This document shows, piece by piece, positions 3,158 through 64,000 of a stretch of DNA of 64,000 bases. Under the pieces are notes generated by a model, which had not been told where the DNA came from, did no database searches, and saw nothing but the letters and a program-made list of their open reading frames with translations. This DNA comes from a virus: IMG/VR virus record IMGVR_UViG_3300042400_000613, positions 22,018-86,017 of that record; one strand, written 5' to 3'. A program made the translations under genes and the position numbers. Within the stretch, counting starts at the first letter, position 1; every line of letters begins with the position of its first letter.

Positions 3158-5440
3158 ATGATAATTAAGTTATATGTTGGATACTACTCTCAATTTCATG
3201 CCAGCGGAGATAACTTCGCTGGCACTGAATGGGCCTTACGTCATCTTGCAGAGGCTTTTGCATCATTAGGTCACGAAGTATATATAACGGGAGACATAGT
3301 GCAGGAGAACGCTTTAAATGGCGTTATTTACTCGAAGGATTATAATGTAGAATCCGATATTCTAATTGCTCTAAATTACACTCACTACATAGATTTAATA
3401 TCAGAGGATAGTTACGATAAATCTTATTTTTGGATACATAACACAGACCCTTTCTTCTACAATTTCTATAAGGGAGAGGATGTTGATAATTTACAAGACA
3501 AAGTATTTAATCATCCTAAATTTGAAAGTGTTATTTGTGTATCTAAGTATCATAAGGGAGAATTTGACAAACATTTTCCGAATGTCCCTTCTATCATGTT
3601 ATACAATGCAGTAAAACATATAGAAAAGTCAGATAAATTAATTATTGATGATTCTTACATCTATATATCGCATGCAGAAAGGGGATTAAGAGAGATATTG
3701 ATACATTGGAGACAGATTTTATATCATCGACCTCAATCATCTTTATACATAGTAACGCCAAAATACGGAGAAAAATTCTATGAGAAGCATTTTTCTTATG
3801 TTAAAAGCACGTATAAAAATGTGTACTATCATGGATCTATGAGTAAAGATGCTTTAATGACTTTTGCGAGTAATAAAAAGTATTGGTTATATCCTTCTAA
3901 TTATGATGAGACATTTTGTGTATCTGCTGTTGAAATGCAAATGTTAGGATTGATTCCTATAACAAGATTAAGAGCAGGATTAAAAGAAACTGTATTTAAT
4001 TATATTGATTTTGATTCATGGTTATCATGTGTATTGTCTAATGATAATTTTAAAATGCTTACTAATTCATCTACATCAAATTTAAATGTATATGATGCTT
4101 TTAATCCTAAAATGATTGCTAAAGAATTTATAAATATTAATGTCATGGAAAATAAATTAAAGATAGATGCTGTCTATGTGATTACTTTTGATGTATCTGA
4201 TGAAGCTATTAATAGATACACCGCCGAATTTAATAAACTAGGTATCATACCGGGTGAGTTTCATTTATTTAAAGCTATAGATGGTAGAAATGTTAAAGTA
4301 GATTTTGATTGGTCTTTATACAATAGTTGGAAAATAGATAATCATAGTAATTCATATTATAACCGAGATATATTGCCTGGAGAGATTGGATGTGCTTTAT
4401 CTCATTTATCTGTATGGAAAGATGCTAAAAAGAAAAATTATGATTCTATTTTAATTTTAGAGGATGATTTTAAAGTAAATGGAGAGTTCCCCGCGAAAGA
4501 AATAGCATTATACGATTGGGGACTATTATACTTAGGAAGACAAAAAATCGGCGGGGACATAGACATACAAAATGAATTATACGTACATCCAGGATACTCA
4601 TGGTTATCTCATGCCTACATGTTATCAAAAGTAGGAATACAAAGAATAATAGAACAGAACTTTGAAAAATACATCTTACCAGTAGATGACTTCATAGCAT
4701 CAACATACTCAAACAACAATGAAAGATTAGATTTAACATTTATATGGAAAGACATGAATGCATATAGTTTAAAAGAATCTATAGTAAGTCAAACAAGTAA
4801 TGCAAAAACAAGTAAAACATCAAGTAATTCATTTGCATCTAACATCTATCTAACAAAAGATGTAGATAAATGGTCATCCATGTACATCAATCCTGCATTA
4901 AAGAATAAAGAATATGATTTAATTGTAGATGAACCCATACCTGATGTCTTACATTTACATGCATTTAAAAAAGAATTTTGCAATGAAGTCATAAGATTAG
5001 CAGAAGAATGTGGAAAATGGACAAAAGATAGACATTATTATTATCCAACTCATGACATGTTAATCAATGAATTTCAATTACATGATGCTTATGACATGTT
5101 TTTAAATACTTACATATATCCCCTCGTAAAATCTAATTTTGTACTTACCGGAGATAAATGGAAGAAATTTAGCTCTGAAAACTTTATTATAAAATACACA
5201 CCGGAAAATCAAGGGCATTTATCTCTACACCATGATGATTCTGCATTCTCTACCGTACTTACTTTGAATGATGAATACGAGGGAGGAGGTACATGGTTTT
5301 CAAAACAAAAGAAATTAGTTAAAGGAGAAGTAGGTGAGTTAACAATACATCCGGGACAGATAACACATAGGCATGGTGCAAGACCTGTAACTTCCGGAGT
5401 TAGATATGTTCTCGTATCCTTTATAAGACAAGTATATTAA
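3158..5440 (+). CDS. Three-domain enzyme: GT-B glycosyltransferase + GT25 glycosyltransferase + PLOD-type 2OG-Fe(II) dioxygenase
   Basis: N-terminus: YPSNYDETFCVSAVE. Middle: AIDG, GEIGCALSHL, LILEDD, AYMLS, PVDDF. C-terminus: FIIKY, LSLHHDDS, YEGGGT, HPGQITHRHGARPVTSGVRYVLVSF. Confidence 0.85.
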   Translation: MIIKLYVGYYSQFHASGDNFAGTEWALRHLAEAFASLGHEVYITGDIVQENALNGVIYSKDYNVESDILIALNYTHYIDLISEDSYDKSYFWIHNTDPFFYNFYKGEDVDNLQDKVFNHPKFESVICVSKYHKGEFDKHFPNVPSIMLYNAVKHIEKSDKLIIDDSYIYISHAERGLREILIHWRQILYHRPQSSLYIVTPKYGEKFYEKHFSYVKSTYKNVYYHGSMSKDALMTFASNKKYWLYPSNYDETFCVSAVEMQMLGLIPITRLRAGLKETVFNYIDFDSWLSCVLSNDNFKMLTNSSTSNLNVYDAFNPKMIAKEFININVMENKLKIDAVYVITFDVSDEAINRYTAEFNKLGIIPGEFHLFKAIDGRNVKVDFDWSLYNSWKIDNHSNSYYNRDILPGEIGCALSHLSVWKDAKKKNYDSILILEDDFKVNGEFPAKEIALYDWGLLYLGRQKIGGDIDIQNELYVHPGYSWLSHAYMLSKVGIQRIIEQNFEKYILPVDDFIASTYSNNNERLDLTFIWKDMNAYSLKESIVSQTSNAKTSKTSSNSFASNIYLTKDVDKWSSMYINPALKNKEYDLIVDEPIPDVLHLHAFKKEFCNEVIRLAEECGKWTKDRHYYYPTHDMLINEFQLHDAYDMFLNTYIYPLVKSNFVLTGDKWKKFSSENFIIKYTPENQGHLSLHHDDSAFSTVLTLNDEYEGGGTWFSKQKKLVKGEVGELTIHPGQITHRHGARPVTSGVRYVLVSFIRQVY

Positions 5441-13384: not shown

Positions 13385-16300
13385 ATGGGAATAGATGCTA
13401 TAAAAAAAATGGTAGAAGCCATCTTTAATGATTTAAGTCATTTTAAAGAGAAGTATGAATCGGCTTATGCGTCTTTAGTTACGATAAAAGACGACGGTAT
13501 AAAAGAATTACAAGCTAGTAAAAAAGATCGCTCCGCCAATTCCCAGAAAGAAATTGATCGACAAATAGAAGGTCTAAATATAGTTTACAAAAAAGAGCAC
13601 GCAAAACATGAATCCTTATTAAAAAGTATAGATAGTGCTATAAAGGCAGCGAAATTGATTAAAAGCCACACAAATGTAAATGGCTACTCTATTACAACAA
13701 TCCAAGAAGAATTAAATAATCTCATTCCATTTATTGAGACAGTATATACCGAGTCAAAGTTTCTAATAGGTAGAATAGAAATAGGATCGTATACATTAGG
13801 ACAACAACTAGAGTTGAAAGAAAAGGGTCTTGATTATCCTAAAGGAAAAGAAAAGAAGTTTTTAGAAAAAGAACTACGTATAGCCTCTGTTAATTTAAAT
13901 AATATTAACCCTGATGCTAAAGTAACATTAGGAGCTTTTAATAGAGCAAGAGGTGTAATCGACAAACAAGGAAACAGAACTGGAATAGAAGGTAAGTTAT
14001 CTGATTTAAAGGAAAGAAAAAAGAATGAATGGTTAAAGCCAACAACTTTAGACTTAAAGAGAAAAAAAGAAAATAATGATATTATTAGAAATCATTTAAC
14101 AGATATTACTCCTGATAAGTTACACACTATACCTCAAAATGTACAAAAAAAAATAAAAGCATATATAGGAGGTGTAAGTATATCTAGAGAAGAGCATTAC
14201 AAAAAAGGAGACCCTTATAATGAATCAGACCTTGAACAATTAATATACGCAAAAACAGGAATGTCTAGAGAGGATATTCTGCATAGTGAAAACTTATTTC
14301 CTAACCCAGAGGGATTAACAAATAAAAAAACGGAAGAAACTGCACAATCACCCGCAGAAATTAAATCTCCTGTAAAAAGAAAAGGAAAAAATAAAGCACC
14401 CGCAGACGTTATTTCTGATACAGCCTCTGTAGCTAATACATCATCACCCGCAAACATTACTTCTGATACAGCCTCTGTAGCTAATACATCATCACTTGCA
14501 GACGTTATTTCTGATACAGCCTCTGTAACTAATACAACATCCCCGGGAAATAGAGGAGGTGGTAAAAAGAGAAGAATTTCAATACGTGGGAGAGGTGGTA
14601 GCATTGGAGGTGCAAGTACCGGAGGAGGGTCACAATCACCTATTGAAGAGATTAAGCCTAAAGTTGAATACGGAGGAGGGTCACAATCACCAGGAGAAGT
14701 ATCGGATGAAATGCTTAAAATAATTGAGCAAGCAGTATTTAATGGAACTGCTAGAGCTTTTAGTCAATTTTCAAATTCTCCGATAAGCGCGCCATCTGAA
14801 TTTAGTGATTCGGCAATAGATAAGATAGGAAATACAGTTTATGAAGCAATGAAAAAAGCTTTAGACTATTATTCTGCATCTCCTGCTTTAAATATGGTTT
14901 TATTTGGAATAGACCCATCTGTTATGAAGTTATTAAAAGACGAGTTAGGAGGTCTTTCTAGTACAGGGGGCGGGACAGGTGATATGGATAAATTAGCCGA
15001 AGAATTAAGAAAAAGTAGAGAGAGCAATGAAAACCTAGCTAAAATGCAAGAAGCTAGAAGAAAAAAAGCAGCAGCAGAAAAAAGAAAAAAAGATAAAGAA
15101 GCAGAAAAGGAAAAAAAGAGAATAGCGGATCCTAATTCACCCGAAAGTATAGCTAAAAAGAAAAAAGAAGCCGACGCAGCAGAAAGAGCTCAAAAGAAAA
15201 AAGATAAAGAAGACCCTAATTCACTAGAAAATATAGCAAAAGCAGAAGAAAAAAAGAGGAAAGAAGAAGAAAAAAAAGCTAAAGAAGATAAAGCAAAGTT
15301 AAAAGCCGAAAGAGAAGCAGACCCCTTTAGAAAAAGATTAAAGACAATATTTAAAGAAGGAGAACAGGAGCTATCATTTCTATATGCTAAGACAGATGCT
15401 TTTGTAGGATGGATTCCAGGATTTAACGACGCTATATTAGAGGCTAGAAAAAGTGCTTTAGAAACTTTACGAAAAGGGTACGAAGAATTTGATTTAGAAT
15501 ACGCAAACTCGGGTAGTGCGTTTAAGGGTATGAAAAAAGCAATATCAGAGATGTTTAAGATATCTCCCTTCACCGTTATAGTAGCAGGATTAACAACCAT
15601 AGGAATACTTTTAGGTAAAACAATTTTTAATGCAGCTCAAAAAGTAAATACTCAAATAAAGGAAATAGCAGCAGAATTAGGAACATCAAATAGACAATCC
15701 TATGAGATGTTTAAAAATGCTATGAATGCTCAAACTCAATTTGAAAATTTACATGCTAGCTTAAGAGATGTTATGGATGCTCAAAAAGGCATTCTAGGAG
15801 ATTCTGGCATTTTATTAAGAACAAATGATAAAGCATTATCTGCCATAGCTGACAATGCAAAAAATATAGGATTGTCTGTAGAATCTGCCGGTGCATTTTA
15901 TGAGAATTTAAGAATGAAAGGGGCGGGTGATACTGAGGCGAATAATGTCATGACTGCATCACTAGAACTTGCAGATAAAAGAGGATTTTCTCCCCAATCC
16001 ATAGTAGATGATATAGCTCAAAATGCTGAATTTGCATCAAAATATTTTTCTAAGATTAATAAAGATTCTAAATCTGCTCATAGAAATTTAATCGAAACTA
16101 ATATACAAGTAAAAAACTTAGGATTAAATTTTCAGAAGGCATCTAAAATGACACAGCATTTATTGTCATTTGAGCAAAGCATTACAGCAGAAGTTGAAGC
16201 ATCTGTAGCATTAGGTACGCATGTTGATATTGGAAAAGCTAGAGAATTGCTTTTACAGGATGATATTGCCGGAGCGATGACACAAATGATGAATGCCATT

Positions 16301-17821
16301 CCGGGAGGTTATGAAGGATTTCAAAATATGGATTTTGCGGAAAGGCAATTATCGGCAAATGCTTTGGGTCTTGAAGTATCCGAACTAGAAAGAAGTTTAT
16401 ATCTCCGAGAAAAAATAAAACTGAGTAATTCCGAGGATTTGGAATTAGCCATGAGACATGATGACTATTTGAAAAAAATAGCAGGAACAAATGATGAACT
16501 TTATAGGACAGAATTAAATAAAGTACAAGCTGCCGAAAGATATAATACATCCATAGAAAAACTATCAGTATCATTTAGGTATGCTTTAGCTCCTGTTTTA
16601 GAAGCTGTAGTACCTGTAGTTGATTTATTAGCGGGTGCCATAAATAGATTAGCAGGGATTGTAAAATCATTCGTAGGTGGTATAACTGGAGCTAATTCTG
16701 ATGCTGCAATAGGGGGTGGAGGAATAAAAACCCCTGATATGTATCAAATGGGAGGAGGCGCTCTCATGGCAACCGTTATGGGAGGGCAGTTATTAAAAAT
16801 GATGAGAGGACCTGCGGGAGCTAAATTAGGAGAAGCTGTAGGTAAAGTTAAAGGAAGTTTTGATACATTAACAGGAACATTAGGCACAAAGACAAATCCT
16901 ATGTACGTTATATCATTAGGAGGAGGAGTAGGTGGAGTAGGCGGTGGCATAGGAGGAGGGAAGTTCGTTAATGGTAAATTTAGATCTCAAGAAGTATTGG
17001 ACAGGGCGGAATCTATTAGAAATATTAGAAACGCTAAAACCTCCACACCTAAACCCGGATTTTTAAAAGGAATAGTAAATAATGCAAAAAGTTTAAATTT
17101 TGGGTCAATTGTAAAAAATACAATAAAAACAGGAGGTATAGCTTCGGCCTTTTTAGGAGTATTGGATTATGCAGACAGAAAAGTTCAAGGTCAATCTACA
17201 GCCCAAGCAGCTTCTGGAGCGATTTCAGGTGGACTAGGGAGCATAGGAGGTGCAGCTCTAGGCGCAGCCATAGGAACTATATTATTGCCAGGAATAGGGA
17301 CTATAATAGGAGGTATGCTAGGAGGATATGCAGGACACACAGCAGGTTCTAGAATGTCAGATTCATTTTTTAACAAAAAATCATCCTCATCTTACGAAAC
17401 ACAACCATTTCAATATCAAGGAATGGGATTAAGCGCAACAGGATCTATATACGGGGGAGTTAATAAACCAACCGCAAAAGGAATACCTGTAGAAACATCT
17501 ATGGTTGATACCACTCCAACAACTCTTAAACCAAACTTTTCTAGTCCATTTAATACATTTCCTAATTATGGCACAACAAACATGTCTAGGGAATCTGTAA
17601 TGGTTAATAAGTCAAGTAAAAGCGTAGCCTCGACTGCTTTAGTGCAAAGTACTCTTAAGGAAAAAGAAAAAACGGATGATGCTCTAATAAAAGAGGCTCA
17701 AGAACAAACGAAATTAATGCAGGAAATGATAAAAAGATTAAATCAGCCGGCTTTAGCCTTTTTTAATGATGAGGGAAGAAAACAAACAGCAAGCTATATT
17801 AGACTTAAAGGTACACCATAA
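13385..17821 (+). CDS. Tape measure protein with a long low-complexity N-terminal half
   Basis: 1478 aa, helical and Ala-rich, LLSFEQSITAEVEA motif, Gly-rich hydrophobic GAAIGTILLPGIGTIIGG, and its position. Confidence 0.85.
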   Translation: MGIDAIKKMVEAIFNDLSHFKEKYESAYASLVTIKDDGIKELQASKKDRSANSQKEIDRQIEGLNIVYKKEHAKHESLLKSIDSAIKAAKLIKSHTNVNGYSITTIQEELNNLIPFIETVYTESKFLIGRIEIGSYTLGQQLELKEKGLDYPKGKEKKFLEKELRIASVNLNNINPDAKVTLGAFNRARGVIDKQGNRTGIEGKLSDLKERKKNEWLKPTTLDLKRKKENNDIIRNHLTDITPDKLHTIPQNVQKKIKAYIGGVSISREEHYKKGDPYNESDLEQLIYAKTGMSREDILHSENLFPNPEGLTNKKTEETAQSPAEIKSPVKRKGKNKAPADVISDTASVANTSSPANITSDTASVANTSSLADVISDTASVTNTTSPGNRGGGKKRRISIRGRGGSIGGASTGGGSQSPIEEIKPKVEYGGGSQSPGEVSDEMLKIIEQAVFNGTARAFSQFSNSPISAPSEFSDSAIDKIGNTVYEAMKKALDYYSASPALNMVLFGIDPSVMKLLKDELGGLSSTGGGTGDMDKLAEELRKSRESNENLAKMQEARRKKAAAEKRKKDKEAEKEKKRIADPNSPESIAKKKKEADAAERAQKKKDKEDPNSLENIAKAEEKKRKEEEKKAKEDKAKLKAEREADPFRKRLKTIFKEGEQELSFLYAKTDAFVGWIPGFNDAILEARKSALETLRKGYEEFDLEYANSGSAFKGMKKAISEMFKISPFTVIVAGLTTIGILLGKTIFNAAQKVNTQIKEIAAELGTSNRQSYEMFKNAMNAQTQFENLHASLRDVMDAQKGILGDSGILLRTNDKALSAIADNAKNIGLSVESAGAFYENLRMKGAGDTEANNVMTASLELADKRGFSPQSIVDDIAQNAEFASKYFSKINKDSKSAHRNLIETNIQVKNLGLNFQKASKMTQHLLSFEQSITAEVEASVALGTHVDIGKARELLLQDDIAGAMTQMMNAIPGGYEGFQNMDFAERQLSANALGLEVSELERSLYLREKIKLSNSEDLELAMRHDDYLKKIAGTNDELYRTELNKVQAAERYNTSIEKLSVSFRYALAPVLEAVVPVVDLLAGAINRLAGIVKSFVGGITGANSDAAIGGGGIKTPDMYQMGGGALMATVMGGQLLKMMRGPAGAKLGEAVGKVKGSFDTLTGTLGTKTNPMYVISLGGGVGGVGGGIGGGKFVNGKFRSQEVLDRAESIRNIRNAKTSTPKPGFLKGIVNNAKSLNFGSIVKNTIKTGGIASAFLGVLDYADRKVQGQSTAQAASGAISGGLGSIGGAALGAAIGTILLPGIGTIIGGMLGGYAGHTAGSRMSDSFFNKKSSSSYETQPFQYQGMGLSATGSIYGGVNKPTAKGIPVETSMVDTTPTTLKPNFSSPFNTFPNYGTTNMSRESVMVNKSSKSVASTALVQSTLKEKEKTDDALIKEAQEQTKLMQEMIKRLNQPALAFFNDEGRKQTASYIRLKGTP
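14399..14542 (+). repeat. Three tandem 48-bp in-frame repeats (PADVISDTASVANTSS)
   Basis: Units start at 14399, 14447 and 14495 and share the core TTCTGATACAGCCTCTGTA. Confidence 0.95.
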
Positions 17822-21533: not shown

Positions 21534-22854
21534 GAACGAGGATCAACTAAGGGAGGTCCAAACTAATTTTTCAGGTTCCTTTGTGTTTCCTATTCCGAAA
21601 GATATGTCAAATTTTTCGGAGGGGCTCTCTATGTTATTTATACATGACTATAAATCAAATGAGTCATATTCAATAGCATTACAACATGAAGAATTTAAAT
21701 CAAACATAACATTAGAGACATTACAGACATTATTATCATTTAATTATGTAATAGCGTCATCTAAATACATCTTTGATTATTATTTTCCCAGTAAATTTTC
21801 AACCGAGTTCCCATTACTATATTGGCTAAACAAAGGAGATACAGATTATTTAGGAGATTTATATTCATTTACATCTAAGTACAAAAGATTTTATTATCCA
21901 TCAACATCCTATAACATCTATATTCCATATTACATGTTCTTAAGATGTTTTAATAGTCAGCTATCCTATTTAAACACATTGGATAAAAAATCATCTGTCA
22001 TTGAAAAATATACATCTATTCTATCATCTTTAAATCATATTAGAGATAATGGAATTTGCATTGACATTCCTCAAATAAATGAAGTATACAATAAAAAATT
22101 AACAACATCTTTATTACATCCTAAATACATGCTCTACAATGCCACAGGAAGGCCCGTAGGGACATGTAATGGTATTAACCTTAGCGCAATACCAAAAGAT
22201 GAAAAACATCGCTTAGGATTCATTTCTAGGCATGATAGAGGAATCTTAGTTGAATTTGATATTAAGTCATTTCATTTATATCTGATTGCAAAGGCCATTG
22301 GATATACATTAGAAGAAGAAGATGTTCACATGTATTTAGCAAAGATGTATTTCAAGAAGAATAATATATCCCCGCAAGAATACGATGAGGCAAAAAAAAT
22401 CACTTTCACTAATATTTATTCTGAAAGGGGGGATGCTAAAAAGATTCCTTTCTTTAGTGCATTGTATAAATATAGGGATTCGATATATAGTCAAATGGTT
22501 CAAGATAAAGAAGTTATTGTTCCATACTGTGTAAGAACTTTAAAACTATCGAATCTAAAAGATGATTACTCCTACACAAAAGGAAAATTATTCTCTTATG
22601 TTATACAATTAATGGAAGTTGAACATTTTTTTGACATTATTAGTAAAATTATTGTATATTTGCAGTCGAAGAAAACGCAAATCGTATTATATGTGTATGA
22701 TTCTTTCTTATTAGATTTTGACAGAGAAGATGGATTGGAAACATTAAGGGGAATACAAAAGATTATAAACGATTCTGGGTTTAGCTCATCTGTGAAAATT
22801 GGAAAAAACTATTTTAACATGAAATCTTTTGATTTGGAAAACATGCAAACATGA
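21520..22854 (+). CDS. Short divergent family-A DNA polymerase (no recognisable exonuclease motifs)
   Basis: TGRP, motif A EFDIKSFHL, motif B EAKKITFTNIY and motif C YVYDSFL. Confidence 0.8.
   Translation: MMVIENEDQLREVQTNFSGSFVFPIPKDMSNFSEGLSMLFIHDYKSNESYSIALQHEEFKSNITLETLQTLLSFNYVIASSKYIFDYYFPSKFSTEFPLLYWLNKGDTDYLGDLYSFTSKYKRFYYPSTSYNIYIPYYMFLRCFNSQLSYLNTLDKKSSVIEKYTSILSSLNHIRDNGICIDIPQINEVYNKKLTTSLLHPKYMLYNATGRPVGTCNGINLSAIPKDEKHRLGFISRHDRGILVEFDIKSFHLYLIAKAIGYTLEEEDVHMYLAKMYFKKNNISPQEYDEAKKITFTNIYSERGDAKKIPFFSALYKYRDSIYSQMVQDKEVIVPYCVRTLKLSNLKDDYSYTKGKLFSYVIQLMEVEHFFDIISKIIVYLQSKKTQIVLYVYDSFLLDFDREDGLETLRGIQKIINDSGFSSSVKIGKNYFNMKSFDLENMQT
22630..22662 (+). promoter_or_regulatory. Bacteroidota-type sigma promoter inside the short polA gene
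   Basis: TTTG-N21-TATATTTG matches the -33/-7 consensus. Confidence 0.5.
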
Positions 22855-30510: not shown

Positions 30511-30551
30511 AAAACTATTATATTGTTATTTGGTTATTATAAAAAAGAAAA

Positions 30552-30825
30552 AATGATTGGCCTTAAAAAAAACGAATTAGAAGAAATATTTGATAATTTG
30601 AAAGAATTAGTTTTATACAAAGATGCTAAATATAATGGAGCAGCTGATTCTCCATTAAATATTTTTACAGGAAAGCATAAATTTGGATATCGAATTGATG
30701 ATAAATTGAAAAGAATTCAAACATCTCCTGAATTAAGAAAAAATGATATAGTTGATTTAATTGGATATATAGCATTAATATTAAGAGACAAAGAATGGAC
30801 TAATTTTGATGATTTAAAAGATTGA
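30552..30825 (+). CDS. DUF1599-like (nucleotide-modification-associated) protein; start approximate
   Basis: K..KY, P..IF, RIDDKLKRI and DLIGY pattern. Confidence 0.65.
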
Positions 30826-30834
30826 TAAAATTAT

Positions 30835-31278
30835 ATGAAAAAATGCAGTAATTGTAACATCACAAAAGAAGATGAAGATTTCCATTTTAAAGGAAAGGGA
30901 AAGAGGAGATGTGTTTGTAAAAAATGTTACAATAGTAACTGGAAGTATAGAGTATTAAATGGTGTAATAGGTAGAGAAACTAGGAAAAAAGAAGAAACCG
31001 AGAGTGATAAAAGTAAAGAGAAGAGATTTAGAGATAAAGAAGTAAATGGTAATTTTTTAGAAGAGTTAAAAGATAGGCAAAACGGGATGTGTTATTGGCT
31101 AAATATACCAATAGATTTTACAATGGAAGATAGGTTAAGGAAGCCTAGTTTAGATAGGTTAGATAATAATATTGGGTATCGTAAAGACAATGTTGTTTTA
31201 ACTACTATTTTTGCGAATACAGGAAGAAGAGATGCTACAATAGAGGAAATGTTAAAATTTATTTCGGATTACTTATAA
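30835..31278 (+). CDS. HNH-like endonuclease with an N-terminal Cys zinc ribbon
   Basis: CSNC and CKKC, then QNGMCYW and SLDRLDNNIGYRKDNVVL. Confidence 0.75.
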   Translation: MKKCSNCNITKEDEDFHFKGKGKRRCVCKKCYNSNWKYRVLNGVIGRETRKKEETESDKSKEKRFRDKEVNGNFLEELKDRQNGMCYWLNIPIDFTMEDRLRKPSLDRLDNNIGYRKDNVVLTTIFANTGRRDATIEEMLKFISDYL

Positions 31279-33737: not shown

Positions 33738-33959
33738 ATGAATTTACCACCAATGGAACCTGCAAAATTACAGATAACTCCGGAACAAATGGATTCTATC
33801 TGCTGTGATGCTTGCGGACATGAATATTTTAAGCAAGTTTTAATCCTAAAAAGGATTAGTAAGCTATACACTGGCACTACTAAAGACAAAGTTGTCACTA
33901 TGCCCGCATTTGTATGCGACGCTTGCGGAGAGCCAATAGATATGGAAAAATTGTCATAA
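33738..33959 (+). CDS. Small zinc-ribbon protein
   Basis: Two CDACG motifs. Confidence 0.7.
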   Translation: MNLPPMEPAKLQITPEQMDSICCDACGHEYFKQVLILKRISKLYTGTTKDKVVTMPAFVCDACGEPIDMEKLS

Positions 33960-33968
33960 GTAAAATAA

Positions 33969-34922
33969 ATGGTTTTGGAAGATTTAAAAGTAAAGTTGAA
34001 TGAGGCTATAGTTTTTGCTAATGAAGTAAAGAAAAAACCTCACAGACATGTTTCTTTCTCTCAGTTCTCCATGTATAGTCAATGTGCTAAAAAATGGTTT
34101 TTGAGCTACGCTTTAAAGCTAGGTACAAGACCTCCTTCGATACACATGACTTTTGGGACGGCGTTTCACGAAGTACTACAGGAATACATAACTTTGTATC
34201 ACGACAAGAGCGCTAAAGATAATGGAAAAGTTGATTTTGATATAGAGTTAATAAATAAAATAAAAGAGATATATAAGAGAGATTACAATAATTACGGAAA
34301 ACATTTTTCCACAAGTTCGGAATTGTCTGAATTTTGTGAACAAGGTGTAAAAATTCTAAATCATATAAGAAGTAACTATAATTCATATTATGATAGACAA
34401 AATTGGACGCTTTTGGGCGTAGAGGTTCCTCTGATGGTAAAAATACTAAATTCGGAGGAGCCTCTCTATTTTATTCTGTTTATAGACTTATTATTTTATG
34501 ATAAACTTAACAATACTTTAATCATAGATGATATAAAAACTTCCGGCAAAGGATGGAGCTCTTACTCCAAGAAGGATAAAATAAAAACATCTCAGGTATT
34601 ACTATATAAGGCTTTTTTATCCAAAAGTCTCGGATTAGATTATAAAAAAATAGATACGAGGTTTACTATAGTGAGAAGAATAACAGATGCTTATGACTTT
34701 CCTCTTAGTAGAGTGCAGTTATTTAAGCCTGCTCAATCAAATAAATCTACTGATTTAGCTTTAGATAGTTTTAAAGATTTCGTAAAAACGGTATTTGACA
34801 AAGAAGGAAATTATAGACATGATATAGAATACCCAGCCGTAACAGGAAATAATTGTTTTAACTGCAATTACTGCGAATTTAATGATAGACATGACATTTG
34901 CCCTATAGAAAATAGATTATAA
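33969..34922 (+). CDS. PD-(D/E)XK nuclease, Cas4/RecB-like
   Basis: SFSQ..C, FGTAFH, FIDL, DIKTS, Q..LY and a C-terminal Cys cluster. Confidence 0.85.
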   Translation: MVLEDLKVKLNEAIVFANEVKKKPHRHVSFSQFSMYSQCAKKWFLSYALKLGTRPPSIHMTFGTAFHEVLQEYITLYHDKSAKDNGKVDFDIELINKIKEIYKRDYNNYGKHFSTSSELSEFCEQGVKILNHIRSNYNSYYDRQNWTLLGVEVPLMVKILNSEEPLYFILFIDLLFYDKLNNTLIIDDIKTSGKGWSSYSKKDKIKTSQVLLYKAFLSKSLGLDYKKIDTRFTIVRRITDAYDFPLSRVQLFKPAQSNKSTDLALDSFKDFVKTVFDKEGNYRHDIEYPAVTGNNCFNCNYCEFNDRHDICPIENRL

Positions 34923-59515: not shown

Positions 59516-59800
59516 CTAATCTACATTTTTCTCCTTCATATACTTCATACTTACAAACTTTCCAGTGAAACTACCTAAGATATACGAGGCAATCATGTAG
59601 AGATTACCCTGTATCAAAGCATCAATAGAAAAGTAAAGAGAGGCGAGAGAAATGATGTTTATCATAACAGCGTTTATTAAAGATTTAGTAATTTGTTTGT
59701 TATATGTATATTGTATTTCAAGAGTCCTAAGAATGTTGATGGAGAATTGAAATATGAATAGAAGTATCATGTCCATGTTATCGGTAATCATATTTAGCAC
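59516..59800 (-). CDS. Small membrane protein (DUF5698/DUF2179-like)
   Basis: Three hydrophobic segments, LRTL and YILGSFTG. Confidence 0.6.
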   Translation of the reverse strand: MLNMITDNMDMILLFIFQFSINILRTLEIQYTYNKQITKSLINAVMINIISLASLYFSIDALIQGNLYMIASYILGSFTGKFVSMKYMKEKNVD

Positions 59801-60341
59801 TCTCGTATAAAGCCTTCAAGTCATCCATGTTTATATTTTCCTTCGGCCGGACCTCGACAAGTGTACCGGTTTGGCTCACAATCTCGACGTAAGGCAGGAT
59901 ATCGTGGTAGTGGGTACGAGAAGTAAAGTCATGTATTAAGATGGATTGTACGCCCTTTATGACCGCTTTACAGGCACAGGCTAATCTGAACCTACCATCA
60001 ACTAGTACAACATCAATATCGTCGTACTTATCAATAACAGCAGAATACGTAGGAAAGTTGTCTTTTTTATTGTTGTTAGTTGGTCTCCCCATATTCCCAG
60101 CGTTAATGTCAATATGGTGGAACGTTATATCTGGGTGGATCTTAACTGCCTCGTATTGCTTCACCTCCTCTATCCACATTTTTTGAGACTCCACTGATAC
60201 TACCTTCCCGGCCCCATTTTTGCACGCCCGGAAAGTACTCCCACCTGCACCCCACTCAAAGTAAAACACAACACCCCGAACAGCATTCACAAACATTTCT
60301 TCCTCATCCTTTTTCATTAGTATTCCCGGCTCTTTTCTCAT
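59778..60341 (-). CDS. SAM-dependent methyltransferase-like protein
   Basis: YFEWGAGGST, SVES, VLVDGRFRLAC and IHDF. Confidence 0.8.
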   Translation of the reverse strand: MRKEPGILMKKDEEEMFVNAVRGVVFYFEWGAGGSTFRACKNGAGKVVSVESQKMWIEEVKQYEAVKIHPDITFHHIDINAGNMGRPTNNNKKDNFPTYSAVIDKYDDIDVVLVDGRFRLACACKAVIKGVQSILIHDFTSRTHYHDILPYVEIVSQTGTLVEVRPKENINMDDLKALYESAKYDYR

Positions 60342-60344
60342 AAA

Positions 60345-60720
60345 TTCTTTTTACATGCTTATTAATCTCTTTCATATATAAGTACATTCAGAGAGCATCC
60401 TTATCATCATGTCTTTTATATTTCATATTCATTTTACATATTAGAAGCATTTTACTTTACACATTAGAAGAATTTCATTTTATACATTTTCTCTGCATCC
60501 ACTTATTATTCTTTTTTCATTTAATATTTCATGCTTTCTTAAATGTTATTTTTCATCCTTTTTCATTTAATATTTCATGTTATTTTAATTTTATACTTTA
60601 ATATTTCATGTTATTTTAAATCTTATTTTTCATTTAGTAGCAATGCATATTTCATTCTTATTTCATTTTATATTTCATCCTATGTTCATGTTATTTTGAG
60701 TGCATTTTTTTTGTCCGCGG
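60345..60720. repeat. Non-coding T-rich low-complexity tract with recurrent (TT)CAT(G) units
   Basis: TTTTCATTTAATATTTCATG and ATATTTCATGTTATTTT recur; the tract ends at CCGCGG (60715). Confidence 0.75.
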
Positions 60721-60984
60721 TTTTTTAAATATTGATTCCGGAGAAGTGCCAAAACTGTATAGGGAAAAGTGTAAAAGCCTGATAATTAATAGGTTGCTTA
60801 GTGAATTACTTCAAATGGTATATAAATAACTAGTAGGGAAAAAAATGGACCTCGATATGAACGTGGTTCTAACCGGCGATCCCTTTTCTGGACTTTTTGT
60901 GTCTTATCGAAAATAATGGAATGGCTGAAACCCGCATGGTTATTAGGTTTCAGATCTTTTGTCAATTTTTTTGAAAAATAGTGC

Positions 60985-61015
60985 TTGACAGTCAATATCT
61001 GAAAATCTATCTTTG
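60985..61015 (+). promoter_or_regulatory. Early promoter, Bacteroidota sigma type
   Basis: TTG(ACA) followed by TATCTTTG at 61008-61015. Confidence 0.7.
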
Positions 61016-61181
61016 TGGTGTACTTAATCGGTTACGACGTACGATGCACCTACAAACGTGTAGGTGTTTATTTTGAAACGCGGGAAAAATTTTCAACCCT
61101 TATATATGTGAGGAACAATAAACGGGTTGAAAAAAAATTAAAAAAAAATTCGCAAAGTGTTTTTTTTACGAAAATGTTTTT

Positions 61182-61189
61182 TATCTTTG
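61182..61189 (+). promoter_or_regulatory. Early promoter -7 element
   Basis: TATCTTTG about 40 nt before the 41-aa ORF. Confidence 0.7.
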
Positions 61190-61230
61190 CATCAACGAAT
61201 TAATTATTTAACCACTTAATCACTTTTATC

Positions 61231-61356
61231 ATGAAAAAATCAGATTTAATCATTGTTGCAGTTGGTATCGTAGTAATTGCGGCAATTTTATGCGGCTTAT
61301 TTTACGCCGCAATTATTCTTAATAACGGAAACGCCGGTTTTAACGGCGGTTTCTAA
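61231..61356 (+). CDS. 41-aa membrane/secreted peptide (paralogue A), absent from the ORF track
   Basis: MKKSDLIIVAVGIVVIAAILCGLFYAAIILNNGNAGFNGGF; homologue at 63379. Confidence 0.8.
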   Translation: MKKSDLIIVAVGIVVIAAILCGLFYAAIILNNGNAGFNGGF

Positions 61357-61429
61357 AACAAAAAAAGGGCTACATTAAATTGTAGCCCTACCTTAAAAAA
61401 TCATTTTTAACCTTTTTAAATTTTACGTT

Positions 61430-61687
61430 ATGAATTTCAAAATTAATTTTATTTACTCTTTGATTTATGCCAACATTGGCAAAAATGGTATATCTCGCGA
61501 GAATGCCTCAAGAATGTTAACTATTTTAAATCGAGCAAATCGTTTTACGGCAAATCGTTTACTTGAGGATTTAATCCGCGAAAATGCGGAACACTATGTA
61601 ACCCAATTTTGTTGGGACAAAAGTAACCCAATAGTGGTATCTTATGAGGAATATTTCTTTGACCTTTTAGTCAAAGAAATGAAATAA
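61430..61687 (+). CDS. Early hypothetical protein
   Basis: Preceded by a hairpin (61366-61389) and a TTTTTAAATTTTA leader. Confidence 0.7.
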   Translation: MNFKINFIYSLIYANIGKNGISRENASRMLTILNRANRFTANRLLEDLIRENAEHYVTQFCWDKSNPIVVSYEEYFFDLLVKEMK

Positions 61688-61773
61688 AAAAAGAGGGGCT
61701 TCGCCTGAAGCCCCTCACTAAAAAAAATCGGGCAAAAAATTATTAACTTTTTTTAAATTTTAAATTTACAGTC

Positions 61774-62076
61774 ATGTATCAATTATCATTTAACTTGCTT
61801 AATGCAGGTAGTGTCACAGTTTCTTTTGACGTCAACTTTGGCGGAATACAAGAGCTTTATGTTGGCTTAAAGCCAACATTTGACAAATTTTATTTTGCCT
61901 CATTGAGCCAAAAAATACAGCTTGCTTCAATTAAAGCAAATGATAGCTTTAATTTCAAATGGGATAGGATATCCCAAAGCGAATTAAGAATTGAGATTCT
62001 TAAGCAAGTTTTAGATATTAAGACAAGAGAGGACGGCAATTACTATCAAACGTCCAAATTTAATTGGATACCTTAA
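61774..62076 (+). CDS. Early hypothetical protein
   Basis: Preceded by a hairpin (61693-61716) and a similar leader. Confidence 0.7.
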   Translation: MYQLSFNLLNAGSVTVSFDVNFGGIQELYVGLKPTFDKFYFASLSQKIQLASIKANDSFNFKWDRISQSELRIEILKQVLDIKTREDGNYYQTSKFNWIP

Positions 62077-62145
62077 ACAGAAAGCCCCGCGGTAAAACGC
62101 GGGGCAATTTTTAAATAAATTTTTTAATCACTTAAATTTTATACT

Positions 62146-62391
62146 ATGATTACAATTGAGTTTAAAAGAAATGGTTCTTTCTTTGTGGCTTATGTCCAAA
62201 GAGAAACCGAAAAGGCATACCAATGCGAGGTTCTCTTAGTAGATATTAATTGGGGTGACGCGGTAAAGCTGAACAAATTAATTTGGCTCCCTAAGTCAGC
62301 GGTTCAAGGTAACAAGTTACAAGCCTGGCTTGTAAGAAAGTTAGACCTAAGCGGTACATGGGAGGGTGTGCCACCTACCTACCCAAACTAA
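62146..62391 (+). CDS. Early hypothetical protein (RETEKA...WLPKS type)
   Basis: Preceded by a hairpin (62084-62105); ETEKA and WLPKS motifs are common in small phage proteins. Confidence 0.7.
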   Translation: MITIEFKRNGSFFVAYVQRETEKAYQCEVLLVDINWGDAVKLNKLIWLPKSAVQGNKLQAWLVRKLDLSGTWEGVPPTYPN

Positions 62392-62393
62392 AC

Positions 62394-62430
62394 AAAAGCC
62401 CCGGCCGGTGACGGTTCGGGGTTTTTTTTT
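62394..62430 (+). terminator. Rho-independent terminator closing the first early cassette
   Basis: GCCCCGGCCG-GTGA-CGGTTCGGGG followed by T9. Confidence 0.8.
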
Positions 62431-62489
62431 GCCTGGTTCTAACCTCATTAGATCCGGGCTTCGCCCGACGACGTAGGGGGCACCCAACG

Positions 62490-63098
62490 ACACACACATA
62501 CAATAGACAGGCATACATTAGATAGTGCATTAGAGAGACCATTAGACAGGCATACAATAGACAGGACAATATCGCGGGGCTTAACTACATCAACACATTA
62601 CATACATTAGATACACATGATACAATAGATGATAGATAGATGATAGATGAATAGGATATAATAAAACATATAATGAATTGCCTGATAAGATATGTACCAT
62701 GTATATTAGATGTATATTAGATGTTATATAGATTAAATGATATACCTTATGTTGTATAGATGTTATATAGATTAAATGATGTTATATTAGATGATAGGAT
62801 AGATGTATATTAGATGTATATTTTTATTTAATGTTATATAGATGGATGTTAGGATATGTAATATAAATGTTGTATATTAGAGGCATGATAGATAGATGTA
62901 TTATTAGATAATGTATATAGAATGAATAATAAGAATGTATGATAGATGTTATATAAGATGATATGGTATAATGTAGTTTAGATGTTATGATAGATGTATA
63001 GTGGATGTTATATAATGTAAGTAATGTATAATTGAATGTTTATAAAAGATGTATTATATTTCTGGATTGATATTATATGTACATGATAGTTCCCCGCG
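62490..63098. repeat. Non-coding ACAT/ATGT degenerate tandem tract, mostly bracketed by CGCGGGG and CCCCGCG
   Basis: CATACAATAGACAGG occurs twice (62497, 62551). ATGTATATTAG units have a 10-11 bp period. A 24-bp repeat lies at 62718/62757. CGCGGGG is at 62573 and CCCCGCG at 63092. Confidence 0.85.
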
Positions 63099-63099
63099 G

Positions 63100-63222
63100 A
63101 AAAACAAACAGAACAGCACAATAGAACGGAACCGACGGACAGACAGTACCGACGGACAGGCCCAACGAATCGACGGATAGATGGACGGACGGATAGAACG
63201 AAAAGACGGACCGAACGAATTT
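63100..63222 (+). repeat. GACGGA/AACGAA-rich degenerate repeat tract
   Basis: ACCGACGGACAG occurs twice, with many GACGGA units. Confidence 0.75.
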
Positions 63223-63231
63223 TGCTAGGGA

Positions 63232-63252
63232 TGACTAACAGAAAGCCCGAGT
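63232..63252 (+). repeat. 21-bp direct repeat (second copy at 63980-64000)
   Basis: TGACTAACAGAAAGCCCGAGT is identical in both copies. Confidence 0.9.
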
Positions 63253-63328
63253 AAATTTTTTGGGGGCAAAATATGGCGTTTTTAGCAAAATATATGTACC
63301 AATATTAGGAATATAGCATAACTGGTTG

Positions 63329-63336
63329 TATATTTG
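63329..63336 (+). promoter_or_regulatory. Early promoter -7 element
   Basis: TATATTTG about 40 nt before the second 41-aa ORF. Confidence 0.7.
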
Positions 63337-63378
63337 TAGGGCAGTCGCAAGGAAGCGAAGGCGCTAAAAAACAAAGTT

Positions 63379-63504
63379 ATGAAACGTTCTGATTATGTTA
63401 TTATCATTTTAGGTATTTTTTTCTTTGCATGTATGTTGTACCTTTGCACATACATTGCGCTAAATTTCAACAATGGTAACGCCGGTTTACACGGCGGTTA
63501 CTAA
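63379..63504 (+). CDS. 41-aa membrane/secreted peptide (paralogue B), absent from the ORF track
   Basis: MKRSDYVIIILGIFFFACMLYLCTYIALNFNNGNAGLHGGY. Confidence 0.8.
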   Translation: MKRSDYVIIILGIFFFACMLYLCTYIALNFNNGNAGLHGGY

Positions 63505-63507
63505 ACA

Positions 63508-63537
63508 AAGGTGGGGCGCGCATACCAACAACGCGTA
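63508..63537 (+). repeat. 30-bp intergenic repeat with pseudoknot potential (second copy at 63733-63762)
   Basis: AAGGTGGG(G/A)CGCGCATACCAACAACGCGTA follows two successive stop codons. Confidence 0.85.
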
Positions 63538-63575
63538 AATTTATTAATCATTAACCTTTTTAAATTTTTATTACC

Positions 63576-63728
63576 ATGTTGTATCAAGTAAAATTTTATA
63601 AGTATTTGAAGTGCGCTAAAAACGCAATCGCGAGGTATCCTAACAAATACCGGAATACAATTCATGTAACGGAGTTCGATAACGGTACATACTACAGGAT
63701 AACGGAGGTCGAAGGAACGCCTCTATAA
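63576..63728 (+). CDS. 50-aa early hypothetical protein
   Basis: [50 protein letters not shown]; its leader matches the one at 61430. Confidence 0.65.
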
Positions 63729-63788
63729 AACGAAGGTGGGACGCGCATACCAACAACGCGTACTTTTTAAACCACAAAAAATAAAAAA

Positions 63789-63893
63789 ATGAAAAAAGTA
63801 GATGATGAATTAGGCAATATTATAGTTATTGCAATTATAATCATAAGCCTATCTTGTCTTTTCATCTTTGCCGGTATGGCTTGCGGATGTTAG
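63789..63893 (+). CDS. 34-aa single-pass membrane peptide
   Basis: MKKVDDELGNIIVIAIIIISLSCLFIFAGMACGC, with an A-rich leader. Confidence 0.6.
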   Translation: MKKVDDELGNIIVIAIIIISLSCLFIFAGMACGC

Positions 63894-64000
63894 ACGGAAG
63901 CCTCCGGACGGAAACGGACGGAGGCTCTCTCTTATTAAATCGAACGTAGCTAGAGACGGCTAGCGTATTTCAATCGGGCTGACTAACAGAAAGCCCGAGT

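Follow-up and report, generated by a model that had tools for sequence, protein, structure and literature searches.

A conserved, cytosine-poor non-coding module at the head of the early-cassette region of a probable T4-like phage of Bacteroidetes

The DNA analysed here, hereafter the window, is the last 64 kb (64,000 nucleotides) of an 86,017-bp virus contig of the IMG/VR database (IMGVR_UViG_3300042400_000613, positions 22,018 to 86,017) with an estimated completeness of 49%. Its gene content includes a major head protein, a tail sheath, a tape measure, a UvsX-like recombinase, a DnaB-type helicase, a family A polymerase and a ribonucleotide reductase. The nearest cultured relatives of its major capsid protein are those of Microcystis phage Mel-JY01 (59.5%) and Flavobacterium phage immuto (54.6%), with T4-type phages next at ca. 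27%, and a box scan showed that the promoters of its early region have the form TTG or TTAG, ca. 20 nt, TAnnTTTG, a type given as the Bacteroidetes promoter consensus in the part of PMC6847099 used here. The phage is probably a T4-like myophage of Bacteroidetes. Near the right end of the window, 2 kb from a strand switch of transcription, a tract located at 62573-63098 is flanked on both sides by early-gene cassettes, as already seen in a preliminary description made from the sequence letters. This tract is a real, conserved and constrained non-coding element, and corresponds to a probably cis-acting, single-copy module insulated by terminators at the head of the early-cassette region. No mention of such an element in this phage lineage was found in the papers listed or consulted.

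The tract begins with CGCGGGG (62573-62579), continues with 512 inner bases and ends with CCCCGCG (63092-63098), the two 7-mers being exact inverted copies of one another. The inner bases comprise 201 A, 198 T, 92 G and 21 C, with no CG and two GC dinucleotides, and a single C (62884) is found between 62747 and 63061. Positions 62580-62664 are ACAT-rich and G-poor, while the rest of the tract is ATGT-rich and C-free. The gene-free and CG-free stretch of ca. 520 bp with inverted ends that had been reported, as well as its ACAT start turning into ATG-type units, is therefore what the sequence contains. No open frame occurs in the tract, since TAA, TAG and TGA are all present in each of the three frames of the + strand and the frames of the - strand hold 6 to 14 stops; the longest open stretch measures 26 codons on the + strand and 71 on the - strand. 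Coding under an alternative genetic code was ruled out by the same distribution of stops.

The module of which the tract is the central part can be followed from left to right on the + strand. It is preceded by a terminator (62395-62428) made of a GC hairpin (stem 62403-62416) and nine T, which closes a gene for an 81-amino-acid protein (62146-62391) and which is kept in all eight aligned relatives, with two pairs changed on both sides. The 5' flank (62431-62572) consists of a conserved 60-nt segment followed by about five CATACAATAGACAGG-type units rich in A, C and G, for which Tandem Repeats Finder (TRF) gave a period of 15 and 5.0 copies. Two overlapping hairpins, GCCYGG..CYGGGC and GGGC-TTCG-GCCC, can be drawn in the 60-nt segment, in which C>T changes keep pairing as G-U on the + strand only; no pair has changed on both sides, so that the structure is unproven, and the covariation term obtained with RNAalifold was -1.01, two-sided changes being confined to the terminator. 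Next come the 5' GC arm (62573-62579, no strand assigned) and the ACAT-rich, G-poor segment (62580-62664), a compositional reverse complement of the remaining tract in which units have been gained and lost. The invariant core (62665-62790) carries a TTG and a TATATTAG box (described below), a pair of exact direct repeats of 22 bp (GATGTTATATAGATTAAATGAT, 62720-62741 and 62759-62780, 39 bp apart) and, between these, an inverted repeat TATAC/GTATA (62741-62745 and 62754-62758). The core is followed by a variable, C-free tract of ATG/TAGA units (62791-63091) containing a conserved promoter-shaped island (62849-62880), by the 3' GC arm (63092-63098, no strand assigned) and by a T-poor, purine-rich GACGGA/AACGG spacer (63099-63215), which is a lengthened form of the ordinary spacer at cassette joints; only 6 T are found in 63100-63199, and 6 of the 24 GACGGA of the contig are inside this spacer. 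A unit of the next cassette (63216-63345) then follows, composed of a second type of hairpin (hairpin 2, GGGAT..AGCCC) with a T run and of a promoter having TTAG at 63305, 20 nt, and TATATTTG at 63329-63336.

The repeated nature of the tract was assessed against 1000 dinucleotide-preserving shuffles of it. TAGATG occurs 14 times (1.4 +/- 1.1 in the shuffles), ATG 42 times (30.1 +/- 3.0), and 19 of the 41 spacings between ATGs measure 10-12 nt (11% +/- 6%), none of these three values being reached in any shuffle. Autocorrelation is maximal at lag 11 (z = 3.5), and TRF detected a period-11 array restricted to 62699-62822, with 64% matches and 20% indels. The base-composition spectrum of the tract has no peak near 11, nor does the periodogram of ATG positions have one in the 10-12.5 band (power of 3.0 against a mean shuffle maximum of 4.3). 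The array is thus locally 11-12-periodic, without helical phase along the tract: the unit spacing of ca. 11 bp given in the preliminary description holds between neighbouring ATGs and is lost over longer distances, and long-range helical phasing, which by that description would be refuted if no periodicity peak existed, was rejected. In the whole contig, the tract is the least stable duplex over both 300 bp (62702-63001) and 500 bp (z = 3.5 and 3.7, respectively) and has the highest TpA density (z = 6.0). RNA folding of the two strands is unremarkable (z = +0.53 and -0.79) and no Rfam covariance model matched the tract, whether at gathering score or with E values of up to 10, two results by which a structured RNA was ruled out. 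No similar DNA was found in 50,697 phage records.

Several observations indicate that the tract is not an assembly artefact. The DNA is present in lake-water metagenomes (24 runs listed; no RNA run among those listed carries 60300-64000 of the window), and one contig from run X1, which is possibly the source of this DNA, spans 61093-63261 without difference. In runs X3 and X4 the tract is covered in two pieces each, again without differences, and the contig of X5 ends at 62592, the full span being found in X1 only. The assembly artefact considered in the preliminary description is countered by these lake contigs. A joint connecting 62433 to 63215 was detected in all four runs, with 23 letters on the shorter side and 23-33 other letters in between; it was not retained as an allele devoid of the tract and is read instead as the short joints that paralogous cassettes have at other places of the genome.

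Relatives were obtained in two ways. A search with the neighbouring 81-amino-acid protein gave three IMG/VR contigs, all of which have the tract, and a 21-nt pattern of the tract gave ten metagenome stretches, two of which were IMG/VR contigs already found. After removal of duplicates, 12 versions were aligned, that of the window and those of 11 other contigs. DNA searches in the records of four relatives returned one full-length match in each of three and a 65%-identical copy in a 50-kb record (G004), and the tract is single-copy in all five records when that of the window is included. Conservation together with the flanks, whose absence from close relatives would have been a refutation according to the preliminary description, was found in relatives; the distant G004 has the tract without the 5' arm.

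The pattern of conservation is uneven. In the core, mean pairwise identity is 99.2% and the minimum 96.9% (66 pairs among the 12 versions); for the metagenome hits, 21 of the 126 core nucleotides are fixed by the search pattern, but the three contigs found independently via the neighbouring protein have the same core as the window save one or two bases. Elsewhere, mean pairwise identity ranges from 73% to 90%, with 90% and 81% in the two portions of the 5' flank (62431-62490 and 62491-62572), 86% in the ACAT part (62580-62664) as well as in the middle segment, 79% in the 3' half, 81% in the T-poor spacer and 73% in the next promoter. The core, although repetitive, is free of indels in 11 of the 12 versions; in L020, a 65-nt insertion lies directly after the first box and leaves both halves intact, and L023 has an identical A>G change in both 22-mers. 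In the 3' part, the C content is 0.3-1.5% in all 12 versions despite gain and loss of units and a length varying from 217 to 334 nt. Among its 110 variable columns, C appears in 5, with A/G in 45 and C/T in 2 while A and T are equally common, counts of columns made of A, G and T only that misaligned repeat units may have inflated; when isolated substitutions alone are considered, columns are too few (2 C/T against 2 A/G) for C avoidance to be seen. Ranges over the 12 versions are narrow for total length (458-580 nt), ATG (39-45) and TAGATG (14-19). Cytosine is kept off the + strand either by selection or by a strongly one-sided C-to-T pressure. Overall, the tract is under a constraint exceeding that of its surroundings, and the idea that it represents an "unconstrained version" of something else, put forward at the outset, is not supported.

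These data bear directly on the view that the tract is mostly neutral DNA, namely a decayed promoter region in which an 11-12-nt C-free unit grew by replication slippage, which travels with the cassette region and whose apparent conservation comes from the recent spread of one copy by recombination. The degeneracy of the units, a variation that consists mainly of unit gain and loss, the loss of phase and the shuffling of the surrounding cassettes between relatives are all as expected under such a scenario, and the three-letter composition would follow from the C-free founding unit. However, recent spread alone would not be expected to leave one segment nearly identical between genomes that differ in all others, nor does neutrality account for a repetitive core devoid of indels, for the lack of C in 105 of the 110 variable columns, for the narrow ranges of length and unit number, or for a tract still present in a relative at 65% identity. 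We consider this scenario distinctly unlikely.

In the surroundings of the tract, a succession of elements recurs in which small open reading frames (ORFs) are followed by a GC hairpin and its T run, then by a T-poor spacer of the AACGG/GACGGA type, which is short, by hairpin 2 with a T run and by a conserved promoter of ca. 90 nt. Units formed by hairpin 2 and the promoter resemble the promoter-early stem-loop (PeSL) elements of T4-type phages (see below) and were found in 38 distinct copies in the fetched loci, including 63216-63345 and 63965-64000 in the window and L004-L011. The hairpin 2 stem co-varies (TCGGGCT/AGCCCGA versus TCAGGCT/AGCCTGA), and the ORFs located between units vary from relative to relative. 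In all four runs, summed contig depth at the 63216-63345 unit is 4- to 10-fold that of neighbouring bins, which fits a repeated unit, this depth not being a copy number. The contig itself terminates within such a unit (63965-64000), which is the probable cause of the assembly break. The tract and its flanks fill one cassette joint, with 781 nt in place of the 23-33 letters of ordinary joints, and are bordered on both sides by an A/C/G-rich spacer of the same kind (CAATAGACAGG on the left, CAATAGAACGG on the right). The tract is flanked by terminators, and in all relatives the module is located at the edge of the cassette region.

To the left of the module, a mirror array composed of ATGAAATATTAAA units (60400-60710, - strand) lies upstream of a - strand gene (59778-60341). 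It is G-depleted on the + strand at 60471-60636 and C-free when the - strand is read, with TRF periods of 12-24, and its DNA (60340-60639) ranks second in the contig for low duplex stability over 300 bp. It was found at the matching relative place in L004, L005 and L006, with an alignment for L004 and L006, and is possibly related to the tract. Next to it, a non-coding block (60716-60897) is nearly invariant in three phages, with ca. 100 nt in a row including GGTATATAAATAACTAGTAGGG, and contains no conserved ORF in these three phages. Further to the right, 33 nt separate a consensus promoter (TTGACA..TATCTTTG, within 60985-61075) from a downstream hairpin with a T run; this promoter is kept in L004 and L006, and the segment could encode a small RNA of ca. 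60 nt.

The GC arms deserve a separate description. The 5' arm is kept as CGCGGGG in 8 of the 10 versions reaching this end, the exceptions being L019 (CGAGGGG) and L020 (GGCGGGGCCC), and at the 3' arm CCCCGC is kept in all 12 versions, with CCCCGCG in G004. In the 10 versions having both ends, the arms are complementary over 6-12 bp, with inverted ends such as GCGGGGCCCTAC/GTAGGGCCCCGC in L020 and CGCGGGGC/GCCCCGCG in L006, and their extensions vary by lineage (AACTA/TAGTT versus CCTAC/GTAG). In L020, one change mends a mismatch and results in a perfect 12-bp match. Selection for arm pairing is nonetheless not established because the change in L019 breaks one pair and because G004 has the 3' arm only. 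Each arm is identical to one half of a common cassette terminator (62085-62104), which accounts for one copy of each in a contig where CGCGGGG occurs twice and CCCCGCG four times. Pairing, a protein site or descent could each explain the arms. With so few copies in 86 kb, the 7-mers that bracket the tract are not repeated around genes, and the proposal that the same design is "embedded in the genes" finds no counterpart in the other C-poor stretches that were read (30516-31107 and 33935-34037 of the window), which are ordinary A/G-rich coding sequence.

Arms of this type might also suggest a small, mobile, non-autonomous insertion similar to a miniature inverted-repeat transposable element, which would have GC-rich inverted repeats at its termini and lie within a T-poor spacer of the ordinary cassette kind. 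The 7-12 bp of terminal inverted repeats in the 10 versions with both ends, the like spacers on both flanks and the existence of ordinary joints without the tract are compatible with this. On the other hand, no target-site duplication is visible, all five records have one copy each, the place relative to the mirror array is fixed in three of three relatives, G004 lacks the 5' arm and the 50,697 phage records gave no match. Of all the explanations discussed here, this is the one to which we give the least credence.

In silico analyses further revealed two promoter-shaped elements, both directed rightward and both present in all 12 versions. The first, in the core, is composed of TTG (62678-62680), 21 nt and TATATTAG (62702-62709), and the second, in the island, of TTAG (62849-62852), 20 nt and TATATTAG (62873-62880). 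On the + strand, 5 of the 11 TATATTAG of the contig are inside the tract (0.3 +/- 0.6 in shuffles). At the place homologous to the island, G004 has TTTG, 20 nt and TATGTTTG, that is a consensus TTTG-N20-TAnnTTTG promoter, which is the only promoter preceding a series of small paralogous genes. In this record (L029), at least four tandem paralogous small genes with a repeated junction GTAAAACAAAATGTAAAGTTATGA were noted on the - strand at ca. 1000-1760, downstream of the diverged tract, and a perfect DnaA box (TTATCCACA, 2185-2193, - strand) is located ca. 170 nt upstream of it. The island (62849-80) can also be aligned with the cassette promoters (TTAGG, ca. 19 nt, TTGTATATT, A or T, G), and AATTGCC, ATATGTACCA and ATATTAG are common to the core and the cassette promoters.

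One interpretation of these elements is a transcription-control array, in which the TATATTAG/TAGATG units closely resemble, but just miss, the host -7 box and the -33 region found in cassette promoters, and would bind RNA polymerase, a sigma factor or a phage regulator without firing, so acting on the early-cassette region as a sink, silencer, insulator or loading pad. The 12 close versions contain 6-13 TAnnTTAG and no TAnnTTTG, which together with the concentration of TATATTAG in the tract, the homology of the island to the G004 promoter, the motifs common to the core and the cassettes and the position of the module at the cassette-region boundary in all relatives speaks for such an array. 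Yet an nhmmer profile built from the 38 cassette promoters found no significant match in the tract (best E = 1.1), no regulator gene is linked, the units are out of helical phase, and neither the exclusion of C from variable positions nor the retention of the GC arms is explained. A control array of this kind is possible but rather doubtful.

The same elements could alternatively be the start of a non-coding RNA or of a long untranslated leader running rightward from the core or the island to hairpin 2 (63227-63262). Rho favours C-rich, G-poor RNA; a C-free RNA would be a poor Rho substrate and weakly folded, and its role might be that of a leader or of a sponge that takes up an RNA-binding factor. 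In G004, where no promoter other than the consensus one of the tract precedes the downstream genes, part of the tract would be a leader. That in both arrays the C-free strand is the sense strand of the genes downstream (the tract on +, the mirror array on -), that a hairpin and its T run close the module and that the changes in the 5' flank hairpin preserve G-U pairs on the + strand only all agree with an RNA function. Opposed to it are the ordinary folding of both strands and the lack of an Rfam family, boxes that deviate from a nearly invariant promoter position, and a 5' arm that lies upstream of either start, which would prevent any pairing of the arms within the RNA. We regard an RNA or leader as unlikely.

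A more specific form of RNA product was also envisaged, in which the module would make a C-free, weakly folded RNA of 370-550 nt with ca. 40 AUG, escaping Rho and serving as a decoy for initiating ribosomes or for an AU-binding factor. Here the host would not use Shine-Dalgarno pairing and would choose start codons by accessibility, and the mirror array, whose ATGAAATATTAA units read Met-Lys-Tyr-stop, might be a second decoy on the other strand. This idea is derived from the AUG excess, from the C-freeness of both arrays on their sense strand and from the avoidance of extra AUGs near Bacteroidetes start codons described in the part of PMC6847099 consulted. We regard it as very improbable.

The tract is still best explained as some cis-acting element, for instance an origin or a protein-binding array, and within this class we tentatively place first a replication-origin-type element. 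This reading is drawn from the combination of a sequence-specific core with a remainder that is composition-specific and meltable, from insulation by terminators, from the presence of one copy per genome and from the nearby strand switch. Two features of iteron-type origins were found in the tract: repeated direct sites, in the form of the two exact 22-mers and of a ten-fold enrichment in TAGATG, and adjoining AT-rich, easily unwound DNA, since the tract includes the least stable 300- and 500-bp windows. In such a model, the invariant 126-nt core would be the sequence-specific part, engaged by a protein, a polymerase or both, and the following 300-400 bp would be the unwinding part, with a sequence free to drift and a composition (A/T/G on the + strand, TpA-rich) that is held. 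A transcript starting from the core would be C-free, would run into the purine-rich spacer and might remain hybridised to its template, forming an R-loop like those of T4 oriF and oriG. Displaced single strands lose cytosine through deamination; the displaced + strand, if often single-stranded, would be stripped of its cytosine in this way, giving a C-free strand that still contains 18-20% G. The GC arms would then bound the melted region. Protein binding, transcription, R-loop formation and replication initiation at the tract are here all inferred.

Several points weigh against an origin. No initiator or DNA-binding gene was found linked to the tract in the 49% of the genome that is covered, the neighbouring small proteins having no Pfam or PHROG family and being variable between relatives. 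No DnaA-box cluster is present near the tract (no box with at most one mismatch between 60171 and 64000, and no excess of two-mismatch boxes there). Transcription by the host polymerase is doubtful because the tract boxes have A at the -6 position and because none of the 12 close versions has TAnnTTTG; T at -6 is one of six nearly invariant promoter positions in Flavobacterium johnsoniae according to the part of PMC6847099 at hand. The promoter profile gave no significant match, as mentioned above. Cumulative GC skew, which had been proposed as a check, tracks gene orientation and carries no independent origin signal. To our knowledge, unwinding elements are far shorter than 300-400 bp. Finally, parts of two comparisons developed below count against it: the arrays of phage immuto have no sequence in common with the tract and their positional match is the 60.4-61.1 kb region, and the repeats of T4 oriE lie within gene 5, where they coincide with a 24-nt coding repeat, a link to origin activity having never been demonstrated for them according to PMC3016281. 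Among the neighbouring genes, an early ORF of 85 amino acids (61430-61687) has a weak match to a Crp-type helix-turn-helix (E = 0.014, below the cut-off) and was not found in the loci of the relatives.

Hardly any origins or other cis-acting control DNA are known from phages of Bacteroidetes or from the many uncultured T4-like phages of lakes, for which the module offers a sharply bounded candidate made of a 126-nt core with paired 22-bp sites and of a drifting tract from which one base is excluded. If the exclusion of C does mark a strand that is often single-stranded, composition alone could locate such elements in metagenomic phage genomes. In addition, shuffling cassettes of the PeSL type, described in phages of Proteobacteria, exist with promoters of the Bacteroidetes type.

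Other features were noted in the window apart from the module. A pair of paralogous 41-amino-acid membrane peptides (61231-61356 and 63379-63504) have C-termini of the form NNGNAG(F/L)(N/H)GG(F/Y), with weaker copies in L006 and L024. A 760-amino-acid protein (3158-5440) combines glycosyltransferase domains with a C-terminal 2OG-Fe(II) oxygenase domain, and several further glycosyltransferases are encoded at 34.9-50.2 kb, a set that may relate to modification of DNA or of surface sugars. The tape-measure gene (13385-17821) contains a 48-nt tandem repeat (14397-14545, 3.1 copies, 87% identity). Finally, the motif TATTTATT(A/G)TAAA is common to sites located just upstream of structural and some other genes (2489, 5488, 8066, 11346 and 27774) and is a candidate late-promoter motif of the lineage; the T4 motif TATAAATA is not in use upstream of these five positions.

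When compared to known systems, the surroundings of the tract are closest to the PeSL of T4-type phages, in which, in the excerpts of PMC2839356 and PMC4122927 used, a strong early promoter and a GC stem-loop are repeated in hyperplastic regions and mediate shuffling, with stems of the GGGG...CCCC type noted in PMC2839356. The 38 stem-loop and promoter copies found between variable small ORFs correspond to this description, except that the promoters are of the Bacteroidetes type and not of the sigma-70 type. The tract itself differs in being the non-coding occupant of one joint, the composite of promoter and stem-loop being found in the flanking units and not in the tract.

A second comparison is provided by phage immuto (NC_055915.1, 66317-66889; 16317-16889 in L026), in which 8 + 11 repeats of the ACCCGT type in an 11-13-nt register surround a C-poor centre; these arrays stand at the head of the region of small early genes. 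As with the tract, these are large non-coding direct repeats associated with C-poor DNA at the early-region head, and since immuto has them, such arrays recur in the lineage; their units, unlike those of the tract, contain GC and keep a strict 12-nt register. Homology between the two was rejected, as only low-complexity matches were obtained. The annotated small CDSs gp150 and gp149 of immuto overlap the ACCCGT arrays and may not be genes. No published description of the immuto arrays was found in a search that did not extend to papers on immuto itself.

The origins of T4 provide a third comparison. According to PMC3016281, oriF and oriG each combine a promoter with an A+T-rich unwinding element, which tolerates replacement of its sequence and at which an R-loop forms, oriE, oriF and oriG all lie near switches of the transcribed strand, and oriE has evenly spaced 12-nt repeats that are kept in close relatives and whose role is unknown. 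Like oriF and oriG, the tract has a promoter-like specific part followed by a meltable, AT-rich part of free sequence, and it is located near a strand switch. It differs from them in that its promoter-shaped elements miss a nearly invariant base, and in that its AT-rich part measures 300-400 bp, is C-free on one strand and is bracketed by inverted GC arms. The replication genes also differ, those of this phage being a family A polymerase and a DnaB-type helicase, which is not the case in T4.

Finally, the iteron origins of lambda, P1 and plasmids consist of direct repeats beside AT-rich DNA. The tract shares this arrangement, its two 22-mers and many 11-12-nt units adjoining AT-rich DNA, and departs from it in the lack of an initiator gene among those found and in units that are degenerate and out of phase. 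Judged by these analogies, the tract is related in design both to origins made of a promoter and an unwinding element and to iteron origins.

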